Assembly: GCA_035254125.1 (NCBI GenBank)
Contig: DATFAX010000082.1
Span: 1 to 32,000 of the forward strand
Length of the DNA stretch: 32,000 nucleotides
DNA from: Holophagaceae bacterium
Lineage (GTDB): Bacteria; Acidobacteriota; Holophagae; Holophagales; Holophagaceae
Direction of reading: 5' to 3'
In this document: piece by piece, positions 165-30,297 of the stretch
How positions within the stretch are numbered: position 1 is the first letter of the stretch
Layout: each line of letters opens with the position of its first letter
Translations under genes and position numbers: made by a program
Notes under the pieces: model-generated
What the model was told of the DNA's origin: nothing
Database searches by the model: none
What the model saw: the letters and a program-made list of their open reading frames with translations, nothing else

Positions 165-197
165 CGGCCCTGCCTCAGGGAAAAGGTGCCTCGTTTT

Positions 198-303
198 TCA
201 TCTCCGTTCATCTCTGTTCATCTCCGGTTTTCTTCTCGCCGGTGAAAGAAAAGCCAAAGAGAACCAGAGATGAACGGAGATGAACGGAGATGAACGGAGA
301 TAA
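198..303. repeat. hairpin element A: inverted arms made of tandem 10-mers (TCATCTCCGT x3 / ACGGAGATGA x3-4) around a 36-nt core
   Basis: The left arm 198-227 (tcatctccgt tcatctctgt tcatctccgg) is complementary to the right arm 264-293 with 2 mismatches. A fourth partial unit lies at 294-303. The element sits between the psd stop (313) and the start of the next minus-strand gene (164). Confidence 0.8.
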
Positions 304-2565: not shown

Positions 2566-3432
2566 GTGGACTTCCTTCTCCAGAGCCTCTTAAGCGGGAT
2601 CCTCGTGGGGGGGGTCTATGCCCTCATCGGCATCGGTCTCTCCCTCATCTTCGGTGTGATGCGGGTGATCAACTTCGCCCACGGCGACCTCATGGTGGTG
2701 GGCATGTACCTCACCTGGGGCATCTTCACCCTCTTCCAGATCGATCCCTACGTGGGGCTGTTCATCGTCTTCCCCGTGATGTTCCTGTTCGGGGGGCTGC
2801 TGCAGAAGGTATTCATCAACCGCGTGCTGAACGCGCTGCCCCAGAACCAGATCCTGCTCACCATCGGCCTGGGGCTCATCATCAGCAACGTGTTGATGAT
2901 GGCCTTCACGAGCGACTACCGGATCCTCACCACCACCTACAGCTCCAGCAGCTTCAAGCTGGGCAACATCTCCGTGTCCCAGCCCCTGCTGCGCTCCTTC
3001 CTGGTGACGCTGGGAGTGACGGGGGCCCTGGGCGCCTTCCTCAAGTTCACGAACACGGGCCAGGCCATCCGGGCCACGGCCCAGGATCGGGATGCGGCGC
3101 AGCTTATGGGCATCAACGTGAAGCGCATGTCCATCATCGCGTTCGGCCTGGGCACCGCGCTGGCGGGCACCGCCGGGGCCCTCGTGGCCCCCACCTACTA
3201 CATCTTTCCCCAGGCGGGCGGCAGCTTCACCTTGAAGGCCTTCGTCATCACCGTGCTGGGCGGCATGGGCAGCATCCCCGGCGCGGCCCTGGGCGGCGTG
3301 ATCATCGGCGTGGCCGAGAGCCTCAGCGGCGCCTACCTCAGCAGCGGCTGGAAGGAGGTCGTGGTCTACAGCCTCTTCCTCGTGGTGCTCCTCGTGCGGC
3401 CCGCAGGCCTCTTCGGAAAGTCGAGGGCCTGA
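2566..3432 (+). CDS. livH: branched-chain amino acid ABC transporter permease (LivH type)
   Basis: An in-frame GTG at 2566 with GGAAG upstream gives the N-terminus VDFLLQSLLSGILVGGVYALIGIGLSLIFGVMRVINFAHGD, typical of LivH. The protein is multi-TM. Confidence 0.85.
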   Translation: MDFLLQSLLSGILVGGVYALIGIGLSLIFGVMRVINFAHGDLMVVGMYLTWGIFTLFQIDPYVGLFIVFPVMFLFGGLLQKVFINRVLNALPQNQILLTIGLGLIISNVLMMAFTSDYRILTTTYSSSSFKLGNISVSQPLLRSFLVTLGVTGALGAFLKFTNTGQAIRATAQDRDAAQLMGINVKRMSIIAFGLGTALAGTAGALVAPTYYIFPQAGGSFTLKAFVITVLGGMGSIPGAALGGVIIGVAESLSGAYLSSGWKEVVVYSLFLVVLLVRPAGLFGKSRA

Positions 3433-4502
3433 TGGATTTCAAGGTCAAACCCCTGCCTGGAGCCGCCTTCCTGGCCATCGTCGTGGTCCTGCTGGCCCTG
3501 CCGAAGGTGATGACGGATCCCTACCGCATCCACATGACGATCCTCGTGATCCTCAGCTGCATCACGGGCATGAGCTGGAACATCCTGGGCGGCTTCACGG
3601 GCCAGCACAGCATCGGCCATGCGGCCTACTTCGGCGTGGGCGCCTACACCACCATGATCCTGCTGGAGAAGTTCAAGGTCGCCCCCTGGTACGGCGTATG
3701 GGCGGGCGCAGGCCTGGCGGTTGTCGTCGCGCTCATCATCGGCAGCATCTGCTTCCGGCTGCGGGGGCCCTACTTCGTGCTGGCCTCCATCGCCGTCACG
3801 GAGATCATGCGCATCTCGGCCATGAACCTGAAGGACATCACCAACGGCGCCGAGGGCATCCTCCTCAGCGAGATGCCGCCCTTCCACGTGGGCTCCAAGG
3901 TGCTGTGGGACTTCTCCAACAAGGAGCCCTTCTACTACACGGCCCTGGGCTTCGCCCTGCTCACCTTCGTCGTCACCTTCGCGGTGAAGCGCTCCAAGCT
4001 GGGCTACTGCCTCCAGGCCATCCGGGAGGATCAGGACGCGGCCCACTCCCTGGGCATCCCCCTCACCCGGTACAAGGTCTACGCCCTCTCGCTGAGCGCC
4101 CTGCTGACGGGGCTGGCCGGCGGGCTCTACGGCACCTACGTGGGCTTCGTGGATCCGGCCACGGTGCTCGGCCTCGACCTCTCGGTGCAGATCGCCCTGC
4201 TCTGCATCATCGGCGGCATCGGCACCCTCTCCGGTCCTTTGCTGGGCGCCTGCCTCCTGGTGCCCCTCTCGGAGATCCTGCGCAGCAACCTCATGACGGA
4301 GTGGCTGCTCAAGGGCGGCGTGGTGTCGGCGGAGAGCCGAACGGGCCTCTTCCTCAAGGAGCACCTGGCCCATGCCCACGTGCTCATCTACGGCATCCTC
4401 GTGGTGCTCGTGATCCTCTTCATGCCCGACGGCATCATGGGCTTCTTCAAGCGGCTGCGGGGCTGGCTCACGCCCCGCGCAGCCGCGAAGGAGGCCGCAT
4501 GA
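3432..4502 (+). CDS. livM: branched-chain amino acid ABC transporter permease (LivM type)
   Basis: 356-aa multi-TM ORF. Its ATG overlaps the livH stop (TGATG), indicating translational coupling. Confidence 0.85.
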   Translation: MDFKVKPLPGAAFLAIVVVLLALPKVMTDPYRIHMTILVILSCITGMSWNILGGFTGQHSIGHAAYFGVGAYTTMILLEKFKVAPWYGVWAGAGLAVVVALIIGSICFRLRGPYFVLASIAVTEIMRISAMNLKDITNGAEGILLSEMPPFHVGSKVLWDFSNKEPFYYTALGFALLTFVVTFAVKRSKLGYCLQAIREDQDAAHSLGIPLTRYKVYALSLSALLTGLAGGLYGTYVGFVDPATVLGLDLSVQIALLCIIGGIGTLSGPLLGACLLVPLSEILRSNLMTEWLLKGGVVSAESRTGLFLKEHLAHAHVLIYGILVVLVILFMPDGIMGFFKRLRGWLTPRAAAKEAA

Positions 4503-5216
4503 GCGCCCTCCTGGAGCTCCGCTCCGTCAGCAAGCGCTTCGGCGGCCTCAAGGCCAACAGCGACGTCTCCTTTGAAGTTCGAGAGGGGCAGATCGTGGGC
4601 CTCATCGGGCCCAACGGCGCCGGGAAGACCACCCTCTTCAACGGCATCACGGGCTTCGATCCTCCCACATCGGGGGAAGTCCTCTTCAAGGGGCGCGTGG
4701 TGAACGGCCTGGGGCCCGACGCCCTATGCCGCCTGGGCATGGTGCGCACCTGGCAGAAGGTGCGGCCCCTGGCCAAGCTCACGGTGCTGGAAAACGTGCT
4801 CATCGGCGCCCTCTGCCACACGAGCCACCTGGGCCGGGCTTCGGAGCTGGCCATGGCCCAGCTGGAGCGCGTGGGCCTGGGCGCCAAGGCGGAGTTCCTG
4901 GGCGGCGCGCTGCCCATCGGCGAGCGTAAGAAGCTGGAAGTGGCCCGGGCCCTGGCCACCCAGCCCACCTTGCTGCTGCTGGACGAGGTCATGGGCGGTC
5001 TGAACCCGGCGGAGAGCGAGGAGATCATCCAGCTCCTGCTCGGCCTGCGGGCGGCGGGCGGTCTCACCCAGGTGGTCATCGAGCACGACATGAAGGCCAT
5101 CATGCGGCTCTCGGATCACGTGGTCGTCCTCAACTCCGGCGAAAAGCTCACGGAGGGCAAGCCCGAGGACGTGGTGCGGCATCCGGCGGTCATCGAAGCC
5201 TACCTGGGAGAAGCCC

Positions 5217-8084: not shown

Positions 8085-8175
8085 GGAGAGTTGTCCGAGT
8101 GGTTTAAGGAGCACGCCTGGAAAGTGTGTATAGGTCAAAAGCCTATCGGGGGTTCGAATCCCCCACTCTCCGCCA
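8085..8175 (+). tRNA. tRNA-Ser (anticodon GGA), CCA encoded
   Basis: Hand fold. Acceptor GGAGAGT/ACTCTCC. Anticodon stem CACGC/GTGTG with loop CTGGAAA. A long class-II variable arm is present. T arm GGGGG-TTCGAAT-CCCCC. Discriminator G followed by CCA. Confidence 0.9.
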
Positions 8176-8178
8176 GTC

Positions 8179-8206
8179 AAAACGCCCGCCGCAAGGCGGG
8201 CGTTTT
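8179..8206 (+). terminator. intrinsic terminator hairpin after tRNA-Ser(GGA)
   Basis: AAAACGCCCGCC-GCAA-GGCGGGCGTTTT: a perfect GC-rich stem, a GNRA loop and a T4 tail, flanked by A4 so potentially bidirectional. Confidence 0.7.
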
Positions 8207-8215
8207 CGACGTCAG

Positions 8216-8384
8216 GGCGGAGGGTGGGGGATGCGAATGCGGAGCGGCGCCCAGGTAGCCGGAGGTGAGGTCGCGCGAGCGGCCGAACCGGTTCGTCGTG
8301 AGACGAACCGGCGTGGGCAGCCGCCAGCCGGCTGGAAGGGTCGCCCGTAGGGTGGCCCTGGAGGGAATCCCCCACTCTCCGCCA
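8216..8384 (+). ncRNA. candidate structured RNA, tRNA-Ser-linked element copy 1 (unclassified)
   Basis: 169 nt. It has a 17-bp terminal helix (8216-8232 / 8367-8383), internal helices at 8244-8252/8315-8324, and hairpins at 8269-8284 (GCGA loop), 8288-8311 (GUGA loop) and 8338-8358. Differences from the copy at 17105-17275 are compensatory. See findings. Confidence 0.55.
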
Positions 8385-8387
8385 GTC

Positions 8388-8415
8388 AAAACGCCCGCCG
8401 CAAGGCGGGCGTTTT
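8388..8415 (+). terminator. intrinsic terminator hairpin (duplicate copy) after the structured element
   Basis: Identical to 8179-8206. Confidence 0.6.
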
Positions 8416-8475
8416 CGACGTCAGGGCGGAGGGTGGGGGATTCGAACCCCTTGGGCTGACCCAGGCCCGGTCATC

Positions 8476-12295: not shown

Positions 12296-12308
12296 GGTTT
12301 TCTAGAAC

Positions 12309-12398
12309 GCGAAGAGCGCGAAGAAAATCGCCAGGAGCGCGAAGAAATAGCAGAAGAAGGGCATTGGCGCTCTTCGCGTTTTTCTTCGCGCTCTTCGC
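12309..12398. repeat. hairpin element B: inverted arms of tandem CGCGAAGA-type units
   Basis: 12309-12327 (gcgaagagcgcgaagaaaa) is the perfect reverse complement of 12380-12398. An inner 8-bp stem pairs 12338-12345 with 12371-12378. The element lies between the convergent copA and decarboxylase stops. Confidence 0.75.
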
Positions 12399-12404
12399 CT
12401 TCCA

Positions 12405-17104: not shown

Positions 17105-17275
17105 TGGCGGAGAGAGAGGGATTCCCTCCAGGGCCACCCCTTCGGGGCGTCCCTTCCGGCCGGCTGGCCGCTGCCCACGGCGGTTCGTCCGAAGACGAAC
17201 CGGCTCGGCCGCTCGCGCGGCCTCACCTCCGCCTACCTGGGCGCGGCTCCGCATTCGAATCCCTCTCTCTCCGCC
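17105..17275 (-). ncRNA. candidate structured RNA, tRNA-Ser-linked element copy 2 (unclassified)
   Basis: 171 nt on the same strand as tRNA-Ser(CGA). It is close to copy 1, with differences confined to compensatory or wobble-compatible positions. The terminal helix GGCGGAGAGAGAGGGAT/ATCCCTCTCTCTCCGCC is perfect. Confidence 0.55.
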
Positions 17276-17280
17276 TATGA

Positions 17281-17306
17281 GAACGCCCACCTTGCGGCGG
17301 GCGTTC
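17281..17306 (-). other. hairpin between tRNA-Ser(CGA) and element copy 2 (homologous to the 8182-8203 terminator stem)
   Basis: Minus-strand sequence is GAACGCCCGCC-GCAA-GGTGGGCGTTC, with the same stem and loop as at the other tRNA-Ser locus but no U tract. Confidence 0.5.
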
Positions 17307-17307
17307 C

Positions 17308-17397
<90 letters not shown>

Positions 17398-17457: not shown

Positions 17458-18042
<585 letters not shown>

Positions 18043-18102
18043 TCATGTCCTACCCTTCGGTAGACTCTCTCTGGTCCCCCCAAGGACCGCCCATTTGATC
18101 CG

Positions 18103-18133
18103 CCCCGCACGGCCAGGCCGTCGCGGGGTTTTT
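18103..18133 (+). promoter_or_regulatory. terminator-like hairpin plus T5 in the carA leader (possible attenuator)
   Basis: CCCCGCACGGCC-A-GGCCGTCGCGGGG followed by TTTTT ends 17 nt before the carA ATG. No gene ends upstream on this strand. Confidence 0.35.
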
Positions 18134-18150
18134 GCCAGGGGGAAGCAACG

Positions 18151-19233
18151 ATGAAAGCGCACCTGATCCTGAAGGACGGCACGATCTTCCGGGGACGGGC
18201 GCCATTGGGCTTCGGAGGCGGCGGCGAGGCGGTGTTCACCACGGCCATGGCGGGCTACCAGGAGATCCTCACGGATCCCAGCTTCGCCGGCCAGATGGTC
18301 ACCATGACCTTCCCCGAGCAGGGCATCTACGGCATCCACGCGGACCTCAACGAGGCCGCCCGCCCCTGGGCCACGGCCCTCCTCTGCCGCCGCCTCAACG
18401 GGCAGCCCGACCACACCCTGAGCGAGGGGGACCTGGGCGGCTGGCTCAAGCGGCATCGCATCCCCGTGCTCACGGAGCTGGATACCCGCGCCCTCACCCA
18501 GCACCTCCGCGACCAGGGGTCCCAGCCCGGCCTCATCTGGACCGAAGGGGACGGCAGCCTGGAGGCGGGCGTCGCCAAGGCCAAGGCCCTGCCGGACATG
18601 TCCGGCCAGGCCCTCTGCAGCGAGGTGAGTTGCAAGGACCGCTACGAGATCAAGCGCGAGGCCGCCGCCTTCCGCGTGTCCGTGCTGGACGGCGGCATCA
18701 AGCAGAGCATCCTCGACCAGCTCTCGGCCGCGGGCCTGGATCTGGAAGTCTTCCCCTGGGACACGCCCGCCACGGAGCTGCTGGCGAGCCGCTTCCACGG
18801 CGTCTTCCTCAGCAACGGCCCCGGCGACCCCGGCGCCCTGCCGGGCATGCAGGCCGAAGTGGGCAAGCTCATCGGCCAGCGCCCCATCTTCGGCATCTGC
18901 CTGGGCCACCAGCTGCTGGGTCACGCCTTCGGCGGCACCACCTTCAAGCTGAAGTTCGGCCACCGCGGCGCCAACCAGCCCGTGCAGGACCTGGAGACGG
19001 GCCGCATCGAGATCACCGCCCAGAACCACGGCTTCGCCGTGGATGAGAAGAGCCTGCCGCCCGAGATCATGGTCACGCACCGCCACCTCAGCGATGACAC
19101 GGTGGAGGGCCTGCGGCACACAACCCTGCCCATCTTCTCCCTGCAGCACCACCCGGAGGCCAGCCCCGGCCCCCACGACGCCCGTTCGGCCTTCGGCAAG
19201 TTCGTGAAGCTGCTTGCGGAAAGCAAGAAGTGA
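18151..19233 (+). CDS. carA: carbamoyl-phosphate synthase small (glutaminase) subunit
   Basis: The 360-aa ORF has the GATase class I triad block GICLGHQLL and HHPEASPGP. It lies directly upstream of carB. Confidence 0.95.
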   Translation: MKAHLILKDGTIFRGRAPLGFGGGGEAVFTTAMAGYQEILTDPSFAGQMVTMTFPEQGIYGIHADLNEAARPWATALLCRRLNGQPDHTLSEGDLGGWLKRHRIPVLTELDTRALTQHLRDQGSQPGLIWTEGDGSLEAGVAKAKALPDMSGQALCSEVSCKDRYEIKREAAAFRVSVLDGGIKQSILDQLSAAGLDLEVFPWDTPATELLASRFHGVFLSNGPGDPGALPGMQAEVGKLIGQRPIFGICLGHQLLGHAFGGTTFKLKFGHRGANQPVQDLETGRIEITAQNHGFAVDEKSLPPEIMVTHRHLSDDTVEGLRHTTLPIFSLQHHPEASPGPHDARSAFGKFVKLLAESKK

Positions 19234-19646
19234 TGGACCACCAAGACACCAAGACACCAAGAAAGGACTTGGAGCCTAGGCTGGAAGAGCTGGCGGCGAC
19301 GATTGTCGATTCGGCGATCAAGGTGCATCGGTCGCTGGGGCCTGGGCTCTTGGAGAATGTCTACGAGGTGTGCTTGATCCGGGAGCTGACGACCCGGGGG
19401 CTGAAGGTGCAGCGGCAGGTGTCGCTCCCCGTTTTCTACGAAGGCCTGGAGCTGGATGCGGGCCTTCGACTGGATCTCCTGGTCGAGGGAGATGTGGTGA
19501 TTGAACTGAAGGCGGTGGAGGCCATCCTCCCCGTGCATCACGCCCAGTTGCTCACCTATTTGAAGCTGGCGGACAAACGCCTCGGATTCCTGATCAATTT
19601 CAACTCCCCAGTCCTCAAGGACGGCATTCACAGGAGGATCCTGTGA
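19233..19646 (+). CDS. GxxExxY family protein (PD-(D/E)XK nuclease-like fold, PDDEXK_3-type)
   Basis: It carries GLLENVY (GxxExxY), then DLLVEGDVVIELK (D...E.K nuclease-like motif) and HHAQLLTYLKL. The first ~10 codons are just the translated repeat arm, so the true start may be later. Confidence 0.75.
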   Translation: MDHQDTKTPRKDLEPRLEELAATIVDSAIKVHRSLGPGLLENVYEVCLIRELTTRGLKVQRQVSLPVFYEGLELDAGLRLDLLVEGDVVIELKAVEAILPVHHAQLLTYLKLADKRLGFLINFNSPVLKDGIHRRIL

Positions 19647-19680
19647 CCTGCTTTTCTTGGTGTCTTGGTGTCTTGGTGGT
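19238..19680 (+). mobile_element. 443-bp cassette bounded by perfect 27-bp inverted repeats of tandem CACCAAGA octamers, carrying a GxxExxY ORF
   Basis: 19238-19264 (accaccaagacaccaagacaccaagaa) is the exact reverse complement of 19654-19680. The cassette fills the carA-carB spacer. Confidence 0.7.
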
Positions 19681-19685
19681 GACCC

Positions 19686-22600
19686 ATGCCTAAGCGCTCC
19701 GACATCCACTCCGTCCTCGTCCTCGGCAGCGGCCCCATCCAGATCGGGCAGGCCTGCGAGTTCGACTACTCCGGCACCCAGGCCCTGAAGGCGCTCCGCG
19801 AGGAGGGCATCCGCACCATCCTGCTGAACTCCAATCCGGCCTCGATCATGACGGACCCGGCCCGGGCCGACCGCACCTACATCGAGCCCCTGACGCTGGC
19901 CGTGCTGGAGAAGATCCTTGAGGTGGAGAAGCCCGACGCGGTGCTGCCCACCGTGGGCGGCCAGACGGCCCTGAACCTGGCCATGGAGGCCCACAAGGCG
20001 GGGCTCTTCCAGCGCCTGGGCGTGCGCCTCATCGGCGCCCAGCCGGATGCCATCGAGCGGGGCGAGGACCGCGAGGTCTTCAAGAAGCTCATGGACGAGC
20101 TGGGCCTGGAGACCTGCCGCGGCGGCTTCGCCCACAGCATGGAGGAGGCGCGGGAGCTCCTGAAGATCACCGGCTTCCCCGCCATCATCCGCCCCTCCTT
20201 CACCCTGGGCGGCAGCGGCGGCGGCATCGCCTACAACGTGGAGGAGTTCGAGACCATCGTGGCCCGGGGCCTCGACCTGAGTCCCACCCGCCAGCTCCTC
20301 ATCGAGGAGAGCATCCTGGGGTGGAAGGAGTTCGAACTGGAGGTGGTGCGGGACCTGGACGACAACGTGGAGGTCATCTGCTCCATCGAGAACCTGGATC
20401 CCATGGGCGTCCACACGGGGGACAGCATCACCGTGGCGCCGGCCCTCACCCTTACGGACCCCGAGTACCAGCGCATGCGCGAGGCCGCTAAGGCCATCAT
20501 GCGCGGCGTGGGCGTAGAGACGGGCGGCAGCAACGTGCAGTTCGCCCTCAATCCCGAGGATGCCCGCATCATCGTCATCGAGATGAACCCCCGCGTGAGC
20601 CGCAGCTCCGCACTGGCCTCCAAGGCCACGGGCTTCCCCATCGCTTGGGTGGCCACGAAGCTGGCCCTGGGCTACCGCCTGTGGGAGCTGCCCAACGCCA
20701 TCACGCAGAAGACCAAGGCCGCCTTCGAGCCCGTGCTCGACTACGTGGTCGTGAAGATCCCCCGCTTCACCTTCGAGAAGTTCCCCCAGGCCCAGCCCGT
20801 GCTCGGCACCCAGATGAAGAGCGTGGGCGAGGTGATGTCCATCGGCCGCTCCTTCCAGGAGGCCCTGCAGAAGGCCGTGCGCTCCCTGGAGGAGGGCCAT
20901 GCGGGCCTCGCCGGCGCCCTGGAGGGCAAGCTGGACCTGAGCCGCCTGCGCGAGCACCTGCTCATCCCCGGCCCTCAGCGCCTCTTCTGGCTCTACCACG
21001 CCCTCAAGGCGGGCCACACCGTGGAGGAGCTCCACCGCCTCACGAAGGTGACCTCCTGGTTCCTGCGGGAGATCGAGGAGATCGTCATCCTCGAGGGTCG
21101 GCTCCGCGGCTTCAGCGTGGACCGACTGCCCGAGGAACTGCTGGAGAAGGCCAAGCGGGCCGGTTTCAGCGACGGCCAGATCGCCGTGTTCTGCGGCGGC
21201 TCCGACTGGGAGGTGAAGAAGCGCCGCCACGCCCTGGGCATCCACCCCGTCTACAAGCGGGTGGACACCTGCAGCGGCGAGTTCGTGGCGGAGACGCCCT
21301 ACCTCTACGGCACCTGGGAGTACGGCGACGCCAGCGAGGCCACGCCCTCGGACCGCCCCAAGGCCATCGTGCTGGGCTCCGGCCCCAACCGCATCGGCCA
21401 GGGCGTGGAGTTCGACTGCTGCTGCGTGCAGGCGGTGGAGGCCATCCGGGCCTCCGGCGTCGAGGCGATCCTCATCAACTGCAACCCCGAGACGGTGAGC
21501 ACGGACTTCGACACCAGCGACCGCCTCTACTTCGAGCCCCTCACCCACGAGCACGTGAAGAGCGTGATCCGTCGCGAAGGTTCCAACGGCAAGCTGCTGG
21601 GCGTCTTCGCCCAGTTCGGAGGCCAGACGCCCCTCAAGCTGGCCGGCCGCCTGGATGCCGAGGGCGTCACCCTGCTGGGCACGCCCCTGCAGGCCATCAA
21701 CGATGCCGAGGACCGGGAGCGCTTCGGCAAGGTGCTCCAGAAGCTGGGCATCCCCGTGGCCAAGTGGGGCATGGCTTCGAGCCTCGAGCAGGCCCGGACC
21801 ATCGCCCACGACATCCAGTACCCCGTGATGGTGCGCCCCAGCTTCGTGCTCGGAGGCCGCGGCATGGCCGTGGTCTTCGATGACGAGGGACTGGAGAAGT
21901 ACCTCCGCGAGGCCGCGGCCGTGAACGAGGACCAGCCCGTGCTGCTGGACCGCTACCTGGACGGCGCCCAGGAGCTGGATGTGGACCTGGTCTGCGACGG
22001 CCACCGCGTGGCCATTGCCGGCGTCATGGCCCACATCGAGGAGGCGGGCGTCCACAGCGGCGACAGCTTCGGCGTCTTCCCGCCCCTGGGCGTGGAGGAA
22101 TCGGTGCTGGAGACCGTGAAGGCCCAGAGCCGCCAGCTGGCCCTGGAGATCGGCGTGCGCGGCCTCATGAACCTCCAGTGGGCCATCAAGGATGGCGTGG
22201 CCTACTGCCTGGAGGCCAACCCCCGCGCCAGCCGCACGGTGCCCTTCATCAGCAAGGCCACGGGCCAGGACTGGGCGGGCATCGCGGCCCGCATCGGCCT
22301 GGGCCAGACCTTGGACGCGCAGCAGGTGAAGGACGGCGAGCCCCTGGCCGTGGCGGTGAAGGGCGTGGTCTTCCCCTTCGCCAAGTTCCCCGGCGTGGAT
22401 CCGGTGCTCGGCCCGGAGATGAAGAGCACGGGCGAGGTCATGGGCATCGGCGACACCTTCGGTGAAGCCTACGCCAAGGCCCTGGTGGCCGCGGGCATCC
22501 CGCTGCCCCTGAGCGGCACCGTGTTCATCAGTGTGAACGACAAGGACAAGGGCAAGTTGCAGGAGCTGGCCGGCAAGCTCACGGGCATGGGCTTCGGCCT

Positions 22601-22904
22601 CTGCGCCACGGAGGGCACGGCCCGCCACCTGGAGACCGTGGGCTACAAGGTGCGCCGCATCTTCAAGGTGAACGAGGGCCGCCCCCACGCCGTGGACCTC
22701 CTCAAGAACGGCGAGATCCAGTGGGTCATCAACAGCCCCCTGGGCCGCGACGCCTTCTTCGACGAGGGCGCCATCCGCAAGGAAGCCCTGCGCCTGAAGA
22801 TCCCCTGCCTCACCAACATGAACGCGGCCCTGGCCGCCTGCGAGGCCGTAGACACGCTGCGCAGCCAGCTCACGGTGCGGGCGCTGCAGAGCTTGAAGGG
22901 CTGA
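19686..22904 (+). CDS. carB: carbamoyl-phosphate synthase large subunit
   Basis: The 1072-aa ORF has duplicated ATP-grasp halves and a C-terminal MGS-like domain. Its N-terminus [33 protein letters not shown] is canonical. Confidence 0.95.
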
Positions 22905-25109: not shown

Positions 25110-25259
25110 GGATCGCGAATAGCGCGAATAAGGGCGCGAATGGCGCGAATGAATAAGTAGGGTCGTCCTACCCATTCAAGGTGGGGTTCGGATTCCACCT
25201 TGGCCTCTTTCGACGTCTCATTCGCGCTATTCGCGCCTTTATTCGCGTCATTCGCGATC
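25110..25259. repeat. hairpin element C: GGATCGCGAAT-type arms (4 tandem GCGCGAAT units each side) around a ~63-nt core
   Basis: Left arm 25110-25154, right arm 25218-25259. 38 of 42 positions are complementary, and 3 of the 4 mismatches are G.T on the plus strand. The arm family is the same as element D. Confidence 0.8.
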
Positions 25260-25304
25260 TTCTTTTCCACCCCGATCCGAAGCCCCCTTTGGCATGCTCG
25301 AGGG

Positions 25305-28733: not shown

Positions 28734-29876
28734 GTGGCTGTGAATCGCGTGGTCCTCGCCTTCGCCCTGGCCGCTGTGGGCGTGCTGCGGGCCGATGACT
28801 TCCTGGACTGGGCCCGGGGCCTGGAGAAGCGGGGAGTGAAGGTGTCCGCCGCCTGCTGGGACCTGGAGACGGGCAAGGCCGTGGACCGACATCAGGAGCA
28901 CCTGATGCTGGTGCCCGCCAGCACCACGAAGGTGGTGAGCACCTACGCCCTGCTCAAGACCTGGAAGCCGGACTTCCAGGTGGAGACCGAGGTCTGGGGC
29001 CAACTGGCGGGGGGGGAGATCCAGGGGGACCTGGTGTTCAAGGGGGGCGGCGACCCCTACCTCACCACCGAGCGCCTCTACACCCTGGCCCGGGAACTGC
29101 GCGCCCTGGGCGTCAAGCGGGTGCTGGGGGAGATCAAGCTGGACCAGGGGGCCTTCGACGGGCAGCGCTGGGGCAACGGCTGGGAAAACACGAGCGCCGA
29201 CACCACGCCCGCCATCTCCGCCCTGGCCGTGAACTTCGGTCGCAATGCCGCCGGCCGCATCGTCACAGACACGGACCGCGCCGCCATCGAGGAGATCACC
29301 ACGGTGCTGGCCGATGCGGGCATCCCCGTGGCCGGCAAGGCGGGACTCAAGGATGCGCCCCTGAAGCTGCTCGCCTTCCGCAGCCCGCCCCTGCGCATGC
29401 TGGTGGGCGACATCAACAAATTCAGCAACAACTTCATGGTGGAGACGCTCACCAAGAAGTTCGGCGAGGGCTCCTGGCCCCGCGGCGTGGCCCGCATCCA
29501 CGACTTCTACGCCAAGGTCTTCGGCCTGGGGCCCGGCCAGCTGTTCCTCACGGACGGCAGCGGCCTCAGCAAGGACAACCGCCTCAGCGCCCAGACCCTG
29601 GGCATCGTGCTCCGGGGGGCCTGGTTCGATTTCGAAGTGGGCCCCGAGTTCGTCGCCAGCCTCAAGATCATCGGGGGCGAACCGTTCCGCCTCAAACACA
29701 AGGATGAGAACCTCACCCGCCGCGTGCGCGTGAAGAGCGGCTACCTCGACCTCGTGCGCACGCTCTGCGGCTACATCCAGATGCCCGACGGCCGCTGGCG
29801 CGTCTTCGCCATCCTCCTCAACGGGCAGACCACCGAGGATGATATTTGGGATCAGGTCAGTCGCTGGGCGAACTGA
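28734..29876 (+). CDS. dacB: D-alanyl-D-alanine carboxypeptidase/endopeptidase (PBP4, peptidase S13 family)
   Basis: The three active-site motifs are present: SxxK (PASTTK), SxN (FSNNF) and KSG (VKSGYL). There is an N-terminal signal sequence and a GTG start. Confidence 0.8.
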   Translation: MAVNRVVLAFALAAVGVLRADDFLDWARGLEKRGVKVSAACWDLETGKAVDRHQEHLMLVPASTTKVVSTYALLKTWKPDFQVETEVWGQLAGGEIQGDLVFKGGGDPYLTTERLYTLARELRALGVKRVLGEIKLDQGAFDGQRWGNGWENTSADTTPAISALAVNFGRNAAGRIVTDTDRAAIEEITTVLADAGIPVAGKAGLKDAPLKLLAFRSPPLRMLVGDINKFSNNFMVETLTKKFGEGSWPRGVARIHDFYAKVFGLGPGQLFLTDGSGLSKDNRLSAQTLGIVLRGAWFDFEVGPEFVASLKIIGGEPFRLKHKDENLTRRVRVKSGYLDLVRTLCGYIQMPDGRWRVFAILLNGQTTEDDIWDQVSRWAN

Positions 29877-30088
29877 GGGCCTACTCGAAGCCAGCATCCA
29901 CGGCTCAGGGTCTGGAGTATCCCGCCTCGCGGGATACCCAGAGGATGACATCTGGGACCAAGTCAGCCGCTGGGCGAACTGAGGACCTACTCGAAGCCAG
30001 CACCCACGGCTCAGGGTCTGGAGTATCCCGCCTCGCGGGATACCCAGAGGATGACATTTGGGACCAGGTCAGTCGCTGGGCCAACTGA
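29835..30088 (+). repeat. 106-bp tandem repeat (2.4 units), each unit starting with a copy of the last 13 codons plus stop of dacB
   Basis: Units start at 29835, 29941 and 30047. Each coding copy reads EDDIWDQVSRWAN*. The 64-nt spacers contain a 14-bp bulged hairpin (TCTGGAGTATCCCGC-CTC-GCGGGATACCCAGA). Confidence 0.85.
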
Positions 30089-30110
30089 GGGGCGTGTCGG
30101 GCCGGGGTCT

Positions 30111-30297
30111 GGATCGCGAATGGCGCGAATGAAAGCGCGAATGACGCGAATCAGCTGATCTGGGGATTGCCTTCCTGCTTTTCGGGCCCGATGAATGGGT
30201 CGAAGAGGTCCGCCCCTCGGGCAGCCACGCCGGGACCGAGGCCAGATAAATCCTCCATTTGCGTTATTCGCGCTTTTATTCGCGCCATTCGCGATCC
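30111..30297. repeat. hairpin element D: GGATCGCGAAT-type arms (4 tandem units each side) around a ~105-nt core
   Basis: Left arm 30111-30151, right arm 30257-30297. 38 of 41 positions are complementary, and all 3 mismatches are G.T on the plus strand. Confidence 0.8.

Follow-up and report, generated by a model that had tools for sequence, protein, structure and literature searches.

A nuclease gene closed by tandem-unit inverted arms in the carA–carB junction of a Holophagaceae bacterium

Intervening sequences (IVSs) of 23S rRNA are stem-closed inserts that resemble the element described here, a putative selfish nuclease cassette located between carA and carB in a stretch of Holophagaceae DNA of 32,000 nt (GenBank assembly GCA_035254125.1, contig DATFAX010000082.1, positions 1 to 32,000 of the forward strand), in the following called the window. 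In Coxiella burnetii, the IVS is 428–444 nt long, closed by a terminal-repeat stem of 28 bp, and carries three tandem heptamers (GACAGAT) just upstream of an open reading frame (ORF) of ~120 aa, with the repeat number varying among strains (PMC4990558). RNase III cuts this IVS halfway along its stem, whereby the ribosome-binding region of the ORF is removed; an origin from a mobile element has long been suspected, and inheritance within the lineage is stable and vertical (PMC4990558). Like the IVSs of Coxiella and Leptospira, the window cassette combines a length of ~430–450 nt, a terminal stem, three tandem short repeats and a small ORF in the loop, so that its layout equals that of the ORF-bearing IVSs. 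We assign a probability of roughly 0.5 to the reading that the carA–carB spacer is an IVS-type selfish, stem-closed nuclease cassette living in mRNA.

The origin and mode of spread of 23S rRNA IVSs have been open since about 1990. A likeness to them had been suggested in an earlier reading of this DNA from its letters alone (the sequence-only reading), and with the stem, heptamers and ORF of the Coxiella IVS at hand it turned out to be closer than claimed. IVSs are closed by inverted repeats of about 20–30 bp, a length at which the cassette arms are also found (28 of 28 positions complementary in the window; median arm of 30 nt in 57 cassettes), and short versions without an ORF exist as well (Salmonella-type IVS). 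Unlike the IVSs, the cassette is located in an mRNA operon junction and not in helix 9, 25 or 45 of 23S rRNA, and its ORF encodes a PD-(D/E)XK nuclease and not a protein of the four-helix-bundle S23p family (PF05635). Further, its units are 8–9 nt long with the consensus CRCNRAGR, compared to the heptamers of the IVSs, and excision by RNase III, demonstrated for IVSs, is predicted for the cassette.

Repetitive extragenic palindromic (REP) sequences, including REPINs, and the REP-associated tyrosine transposase (RAYT) genes form systems (REPtrons) in which, as in the cassette, a single small nuclease-type gene has a short structured repeat on either side, the two copies being inverted. These systems also include many ORF-less hairpins, lying intergenically just downstream of genes, and such hairpins are present in the window, too; REPtrons and cassettes alike are stable residents of the chromosome. 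In contrast, the enzyme of the REP–RAYT systems is an HUH/Y1 transposase, whereas that of the cassette is a RecB/Cas4-like PD-(D/E)XK nuclease, and the REP arm is a single imperfect palindrome, whereas the cassette arms consist of tandem units of 8–10 nt. While flanking by inverted repeat copies is present, a further difference from a REPtron is that the four ORF-less hairpins of the window do not carry the unit sequence of the cassette. As the cassette shares neither the location and S23p ORF of the IVSs nor the enzyme of REP–RAYT systems, it was not filed as a member of either.

The encoded protein has its motif set in common with the Cas4/RecB family (lambda exonuclease, MGME1), which provides its best structural matches and its sole, sub-threshold match in PADLOC. 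Unlike Cas4, it is a protein of ~125 aa without Fe-S cysteines and without CRISPR or recombination partners nearby, and a template modelling (TM) score of ~0.5 implies a relation at the superfamily level. Terminal inverted repeats (TIRs) made up of several short subrepeats, as seen in the cassette, are found in Tn7, Mu, CACTA elements and miniature inverted-repeat transposable elements (MITEs), together with short non-autonomous derivatives, and TnsA of Tn7 is a PD-(D/E)XK nuclease acting in transposition; unlike these elements, the cassette is devoid of a recognisable transposase, a consistent target-site duplication and multi-copy identical insertions. In heterocystous cyanobacteria, the short tandemly repeated repetitive (STRR) heptamers are intergenic tandem 7-nt units, described as tandem arrays and not as inverted arms closing a gene. 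A heptamer-unit hairpin (629–832) is located ~2 kb from a GxxExxY cassette in the Nostoc locus L041, and no link between STRR and PDDEXK_3 was found in the literature searched. No description of the arm-closed architecture was found in the literature on GxxExxY, PDDEXK_3, TIGR04256 and PF13366, although remarks in database family descriptions may exist.

Anatomy of the cassette and its protein

The TGA stop codon of carA (carbamoyl-phosphate synthase small subunit; 18151..19233, plus strand; Pfam CPSase_sm_chain 1e-37, GATase 3e-49; ORF table) is located at 19231–19233 and the ATG of carB (large subunit, intact, 1072 aa; 19686..22904, plus strand; ORF table and tblastn anchoring in relatives) at 19686, as had been stated before and is now confirmed by the ORF table and Pfam. 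The spacer of 452 nt holds an ORF and both arms of an inverted repeat, all given for the plus strand. The left arm, A-(CACCAAGA)x3-AAA (19237..19264), was detected by Tandem Repeats Finder with a period of 8, 3.0 copies and 100% identity, and the right arm, TTT-(TCTTGGTG)x3-GT (19653..19680), begins 6 nt past the stop codon of the ORF. With three exact CACCAAGA units each, the arms are separated by 388 nt and are exact reverse complements over 28 of 28 positions; the exact complementarity and the three octamers of the earlier account were thus retained, while its arm length of 27 bp was corrected by one base in the repeat search. The 16-mer CACCAAGACACCAAGA, corresponding to a double unit, is confined to the arms within the window, with 4 matches versus 0.01 expected, a number that was reached in none of 100 shuffles.

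The cassette ORF extends from 19233 to 19646 (plus strand), its ATG overlapping with the carA stop codon as TGATG. This start results in 137 aa, as in database copy P0001 (100% identical, from a Holophagaceae metagenome-assembled genome (MAG)), whereas GTG at 19230 merely yields the mechanical ORF of 138 codons that had been described in the sequence-only reading; the ORF itself is present, with ATG 19233 as its likely start. An exact-sequence look-up of the window protein with both start codons gave no match, though P0001 is 100% identical. In the subfamily to which the window cassette belongs, the left arm is translated as HQDTKTPRK. That this N-terminus is translated arm, as previously proposed, is in line with a predicted local distance difference test (pLDDT) score below 50 for residues 1–10 of the AlphaFold2 model (89.9 overall) and with an ATG inside the loop, leaving the arm untranslated, in 36 of 57 cassettes. 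For annotation, this means that an N-terminus like MNHQDTKTPR is to be recognised as the translation of a repeat arm.

At its outer end, the right arm provides GGTGGTGA, a Shine-Dalgarno-like sequence 5–6 nt upstream of the carB ATG, and the right-end consensus CTTGGTGGTGA is common to loci L001, L002, L003, L171, L181 and L187. A promoter scan of positions 18000–20000 revealed no promoter-like site. An intrinsic terminator was not evident at the cassette, where one weak site at the ORF end did not exceed shuffles and the arms lie 388 nt apart. At 19628–19655, a T-rich tract follows a short stem-loop (TCACAGGAGGATCCTGTGA), the two overlapping the stop codon of the ORF and the right arm's inner edge.

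Neither a transposase nor an integrase was found among 22 of the ORFs of the window (best 25 of 36 matching Pfam families), in agreement with the earlier statement that none is nearby. Within this scope, an integron gene cassette was not recognised either, as the repeats bracket the ORF instead of forming a single 3' attC and no integrase was detected; concerning transposons of the insertion sequence (IS) or MITE type, TIR-like arms are present, and a fixed duplication and a transposase family were not found.

In hidden Markov model searches, the cassette ORF matched TIGR04256 GxxExxY with 4.3e-43 and 146.4 bits (cut-off 35) over model positions 2–114 of 116, and PF13366 PDDEXK_3 with 2.2e-41 and 141.3 bits (cut-off 22) over model positions 2–116 of 117, so that the family assignment made from the letters alone held in both models. 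PDDEXK_3 was the only Pfam family matched, with no match to Y1_Tnp or S23p (PF05635). Comparison with 19 diverse homologs revealed G38-L-L-E41-N-V-Y44, D81, E91-L-K93 and Q105 to be invariant and Y109 (Q105xxxY109) to be nearly so. The order E ... D ... ExK ... QxxxY is the motif set of RecB-family nucleases, and the presence of E41, D81, E91-x-K93 and QxxxY in the cassette protein thus leads to its assignment as a minimal RecB/Cas4-type nuclease by motif. The best Foldseek matches in the PDB, all of them weak, were Cas4 SSO0001 (E 5e-3, TM 0.50), lambda exonuclease and MGME1; PDB relatives were not found by sequence or profile search. Searches of PHROGs gave no match and those of PADLOC no significant family, the best being a sub-threshold Cas4 (E 0.015, 13.6 bits). 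Given the RecB/Cas4 branch, DNA would be the more natural expectation for the substrate.

The family comprises 31,704 clusters at 50% identity (E <= 1e-3), and the function of PDDEXK_3 was listed as "Unknown" in a survey of the PD-(D/E)XK superfamily from 2012. For this very large family of unknown function, packaging between arms in operon junctions is a first concrete genetic context. Many members of ~275–295 aa (P0121–P0125 and similar) hold two GxxExxY domains and may represent tandem cassettes read as one ORF through the translated arm.

Recurrence of the unit and the carA–carB site

The survey set comprised 89 ORF copies from more than 10 phyla (80 loci of a genome-collection scan, earlier loci and the window). 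Lineages in the scan included Bacteroidota, Chloroflexota, Planctomycetota, Cyanobacteria, Proteobacteria and Ignavibacteria, with cassettes also found in Acidobacteriota and Kiritimatiellia. In 62 of the 89 copies, the flanks contain an inverted repeat that scored higher than all shuffled controls. The arms are nearly always runs of units of 8–9 nt following the loose consensus CRCNRAGR, exemplified by CACCAAGA, CACAAAGA, CACGGAGA, CGCAGAGG and CACGACGG. In the 57 cassettes measured, the arms are mostly 390–430 nt apart, with the right arm beginning 0–16 nt past the stop codon. Compared to the 36 cassettes with an ATG inside the loop, the window cassette belongs to a derived subfamily with the start codon outside the arm. 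Its 120 closest homologs (60–95% identity; source names including Verrucomicrobiae, Kiritimatiellia, Planctomycetales and Geothrix) essentially all start with M(N/D)HQDTKTPR or with a variant of it that differs by one residue or has an additional unit, which is in-frame (CACCAAGA)x3, and the right arm is likewise present in the DNA of the close homologs examined.

A screen without bias for family, covering all ORFs of 90–220 aa in 773 kb, revealed 31 ORFs bracketed by a strong inverted repeat, 28 of which are GxxExxY genes; the remaining three are an antisense shadow of a GxxExxY gene, a leuD-like gene between hairpin arms and an IS200/RAYT-like gene with REP-like palindromes. An exbD-like gene (L064) and an epimerase gene (L014) that were apparently enclosed by arms were rejected as cassettes, the arms belonging to separate neighbouring elements.

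Both arms were found together with the ORF between argS and pyrG in the cultivable Geothrix sp. PMB-07 (L001), which makes direct experiments possible, and at the same argS|pyrG junction of a second Holophagaceae MAG (L009), where CGC replaces CAC in every unit of both arms. The carA|cassette|carB arrangement of the window with both arms recurs on a JGI contig of a second lineage, and in Kiritimatiellia the cassette follows metG, again with both arms. Three further contexts, also with both arms, are a protein kinase gene and an aminotransferase gene, a gene for a metallo-beta-lactamase (MBL)-fold hydrolase and mlaE, and Fic and hsdM within a type I restriction-modification operon (L181). In the latter (2501–2947; operon order hsdS, Fic, cassette, hsdM, hsdR), the cassette overlaps the Fic stop codon by 4 nt; for hsdM, the annotated start codon is situated within the outer end of the right arm. 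Most neighbours of cassettes are housekeeping genes, and the upstream gene is co-directional with the cassette in 37 of 48 loci.

Cassettes sometimes cluster (L035, also L077 and L073); in L035, two GxxExxY cassettes with different units (CACGACGG, CGCCAAGG) lie less than 2 kb apart (2648–3040 and 4362–4754), the second with 46% protein identity to the query. In L027 (2884–2965, 3432–3521) and L060 (1372–1463, 1938–2142), a complete short tandem-unit hairpin, and not a single arm, was seen on each side of the GxxExxY gene, which recalls RAYT genes with flanking REPINs.

For comparison of the junction in other bacteria, 80 carA loci from metagenomes were used. In locus L089, with a CarA identity of 74%, comparable with that of the cassette-bearing L002, the site is empty, with an overlap of 8 nt between carA and carB (ATGCCTAG), from which a tight ancestral junction is deduced for the lineage of the window. 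In L114, from a more distant bacterium, the carA|carB junction contains an ORF-less hairpin with arms (CACAGAGA)x3 of the GxxExxY-type unit and a loop of 14 nt. Elsewhere, the carA|carB gap is filled by a toxin-antitoxin pair of the RHH/ParE type (L105, 2681–3264) or contains an IS200/RAYT-like Y1 transposase gene (L107, 2674–3210; PF01797 match) bracketed by REP-like palindromes (CGTCAGGGCACGGCTTCAGCCGTGCCG); these two occupants indicate that small selfish genes are readily tolerated at the junction, which serves them as a recurrent niche. With the empty site in L089 and the recurrence of the ORF-plus-arms unit at other junctions, the view of the sequence-only reading that the spacer is one discrete inserted cassette stands.

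Selection, arm pairing and competing explanations

Comparison of the cassette protein between the window and L002 gave pN ~0.2 and pS ~0.75 (saturated), pointing to purifying selection. While no more than 38% of third codon positions agree, the cores of both arms are identical; their identity despite saturated silent sites implies that the arms are constrained at the nucleotide level. As pS of the neighbouring carA is 0.40 only, either silent evolution of the cassette is faster or the two cassettes are not strictly orthologous. The guanine plus cytosine (GC) content of the cassette ORF is below that of the flanks, by 9.4 points on average, in 87 of 89 loci and tracks that of the host (r = 0.89), which is typical of long-resident foreign DNA; at third codon positions (GC3), the window ORF shows 0.80 versus 0.95 for carA and carB.

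According to the IVS-type reading, a widespread, promoter-less selfish cassette of ~450 bp, made up of a PD-(D/E)XK nuclease gene within inverted arms of 24–30 bp with three tandem 8-nt units each, would have been inserted into the formerly tight carA/carB junction and, without a promoter of its own, would be carried on the carAB transcript. As the ORF of this subfamily begins outside the left arm, its ATG overlapping the carA stop codon (TGATG), the nuclease would be produced through stop-start coupling by ribosomes that pass along the left arm. When free of ribosomes, the left arm could close with its counterpart to a perfect RNA duplex of 28 bp around the ORF, which would be the same design as in the ORF-bearing 23S rRNA IVSs cut mid-stem by host RNase III. 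RNase III generally accepts perfect RNA duplexes of at least two helical turns as substrates, and the 28-bp duplex in a carAB transcript should be cut if it forms. As coupled ribosomes would traverse the left arm and stop 6 nt short of the right arm, the stem would have to form in competition with translation. The nuclease would most likely serve the maintenance of the element itself or its rare spread at the DNA level, and the nearby ORF-less tandem-unit hairpins would behave like REP-type intergenic hairpins.

In RNA folding predictions, the cassette is closed by its arms in the minimum free energy fold as well as in the centroid fold (z -7.2). For 20 regular elements, 92.8% of arm cells were found to be paired, compared to 83.4% in shuffles, and 64 double-sided arm changes were counted versus 24 expected, with none of 500 shuffles reaching this count or the paired fraction; much of the arm covariation is the whole-element unit type common to all six units. 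In L011 and L086, irregularly spaced units are mirrored exactly between the arms, which implies that the arms arise as true inverted copies. The in-register versus shifted identity of whole arms (0.876 vs. 0.606) was dropped as a proof of pairing, because it is confounded by non-repeat flanks and the refined test was not significant.

Several results count against a cassette of the IVS type. On the sense strand, a G.U-compatible bias in arm mismatches was absent (46 vs. 41, with 85 transversions), and at unit positions variable within an element, in-register matching (64%) was no better than cross-unit matching and was reached by 579 of 5000 permutations, so that perfect pairing is not kept at these positions in older elements and pairing is not a demonstrably selected property. 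What long-term selection seems to preserve in both arms is a six-of-eight unit consensus instead of perfect pairing, and this persisting consensus would suit sequence-specific recognition by a factor no less well than it would an RNA stem. The periodicity of the arms is not explained by pairing alone, and neither the RNA model nor the recognition model explains it as yet. In the window subfamily, mid-stem cleavage would remove the start codon from the ORF. A direct link to rRNA IVSs was not found, either: blastn detected no rRNA in the 168 loci examined, none of the cassettes of this sample lies within rRNA, and the ORF family differs. The ORF-less hairpins of the window use units unlike the cassette arms, and no relic of an ORF was seen in their loops, a search for GxxExxY remnants giving nothing below E ~3.

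The discrete nature of the cassette is also touched by copies without arms. ORFs lacking arms had been named beforehand as an argument against it, and ~30% of the ORF copies are without significant arms, compared to the 62 of 89 that have them. We read these as cases of decayed arms or of arms beyond the search range, and in our view the case for a discrete cassette withstands them. Finally, exactly identical proteins occur in one context each (three look-ups for the same protein in two contexts returned one context each), so that mobility of the cassette is putative. Carriage by phages as the main route was rejected, because a single weak relative was detected in 2.9 million viral contigs. 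Both results together mean that movement must be rare, so transposition is rare or ancient.

Instead of an RNA-level resident, the cassette could be a DNA-level mobile element, with arms serving as TIRs of three tandem binding sites for a sequence-specific factor, most simply a multimer of the cassette nuclease, comparable with the repeated Tn7 and Mu end sites or with subterminal CACTA repeats, with MITE-like, non-autonomous hairpins and with RNA pairing being incidental; we consider this possible, with the odds clearly below even. This would account for the unit consensus (6 of 8 positions) that both arms keep despite independent drift at the variable positions, as well as for the concerted unit change between L001 (CAC) and L009 (CGC in all units) at the same junction, the lack of G.U bias and the RecB/Cas4-type motifs pointing to a DNA substrate. 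The patchy distribution, the GC content below that of the host, the closely related cassettes in different phyla and the RAYT-like gene with REP-like palindromes at the carA|carB site of L107 also speak for DNA-level movement, to which long direct repeats outside the arms in 2–3 of 48 loci may be added. In L003, 47 nt of the 3' end of the upstream gene are repeated imperfectly and directly just outside both arms (2952–2999 vs. 3470–3516), and in L012, the corresponding repeat is 31 nt (2969–3018 vs. 3484–3533) and runs into a second copy of the left arm; these could be long target duplications or tandem duplications provoked by the hairpin. However, a short target-site duplication of fixed length was found neither at the window nor at L002 or L114, no identical copy was detected at two sites, and, as a transposase, a nuclease of 125 aa lacking a DNA-binding domain would have no precedent. 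The hairpins of the window, with their other units, have no cognate ORF in view, and the viral contigs offer no obvious vehicle.

It is unlikely, in our estimation, that the elements serve the host as REP-like RNA elements or in the manner of bacterial interspersed mosaic elements, stabilising upstream mRNA, setting cistron expression or punctuating operons, with the nuclease as a domesticated partner as RAYTs are for REPINs. For the window, this would mean that translating ribosomes keep the stem open and free the Shine-Dalgarno-like right-arm end for carB, which we find similarly doubtful, although GGTGGTGA lies 5–6 nt before the carB ATG and the right-arm end overlaps the hsdM start in L181. 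All five tandem-unit elements of the window lie 3–30 nt past stop codons, four of them between co-directional genes, but such proximity is expected of any tolerated insertion in a compact genome. The very stable hairpin folds, the density of ~16 per 100 kb in the window versus 1–2 per 100 kb in other DNA examined, a difference of about tenfold, and the stability of cassettes at their loci with arms and ORF under purifying selection would agree with a host function, whereas close relatives manage without the element (L089), and the low GC content and cross-phylum distribution look selfish. Moreover, no T-run terminators follow the hairpins of the window, and their units differ from those of the cassette. 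Very improbable is a stand-alone defence or toxin-like nuclease gene in permissive gaps, flanked by repeats that are by-products of local rearrangement: arm geometry and sequence are far too consistent across phyla for by-products, most neighbours are housekeeping genes, and no significant PADLOC family and no PHROG match was obtained, as opposed to the sub-threshold Cas4-like matches in PADLOC (E 0.015), the one cassette inside a type I restriction-modification operon and the toxin-antitoxin and other selfish genes in the carA|carB gap elsewhere.

Tentatively, and with more doubt than confidence, the IVS-type reading may be extended to a very widespread class of minimal mobile elements comprising GxxExxY cassettes and ORF-less hairpins, which would be the free-living, mRNA-resident counterparts of IVSs, with the nuclease as a factor, long sought, for installing or maintaining stem-closed elements and the units acting as its recognition code. 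If true, IVSs, REP-like hairpins and GxxExxY cassettes would have one common mechanism.

Hairpins without an ORF and other repeats of the window

Four ORF-less tandem-unit hairpins, absent from the sequence-only reading, are present in the window in addition to the cassette. As a strict-period tandem detector missed arms with variable unit length, a k-mer cluster detector was used instead, and pairs of this kind were found in none of 50 shuffles of the window. The hairpins have the same architecture as the cassette, with 3–4 tandem units of 8–10 nt per arm, and the units differ between elements; no strand is assigned to them.

The hairpin at 197..301, (TTCATCTCCG)x3, ~40-nt loop, (GAGATGAACG)x3.5, is located between two co-directional genes of the minus strand just past the psd stop codon, with a fold of -63 kcal/mol (z -9.7). 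Between the stop codons of the convergent genes for a P-type ATPase and a pyridoxal phosphate (PLP) decarboxylase, a hairpin of (G)CGCGAAGA-type units (12305..12402; fold z -6.1) was found, the arm of which resembles a GxxExxY cassette arm in L067. The third hairpin (25114..25260), with four CGCGAAT-core units per arm and a loop of ~69 nt, begins 28 nt past the stop codon of a CoA-binding protein gene and gave a fold of -91.5 kcal/mol (z -10.7). The fourth (30111..30297), after an S13 peptidase gene and before a response-regulator gene, has (CGCGAATGG)-type units, also with the CGCGAAT core, in arms of 41 nt that are 93% complementary, with a loop of 105–114 nt; folding of the loop alone revealed no unusual structure (z +1.5).

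Immediately upstream of the latter, at 29835–30090, a unit of 106 nt is repeated 2.4 times with 92% identity, each unit comprising the final 42 nt of the S13 peptidase gene with the stop codon, and a short GC-rich stem-loop. Duplicated gene 3' ends are also seen beside the cassettes of L003 and L012.

In the Rfam search of the window, two tRNAs only were recognised. Partial 3'-end copies of both tRNA-Ser genes (8085–8175, plus strand; 17310–17397, minus strand) are present at 8149–8450 and 17106–17332 in direct and inverted orientation, and at the first tRNA-Ser a terminator-like palindrome (AAAACGCCCGCCGCAAGGCGGGCGTTTT) is duplicated, too. Such copies may derive from decayed tRNA genes or mark former att sites of integrative elements.

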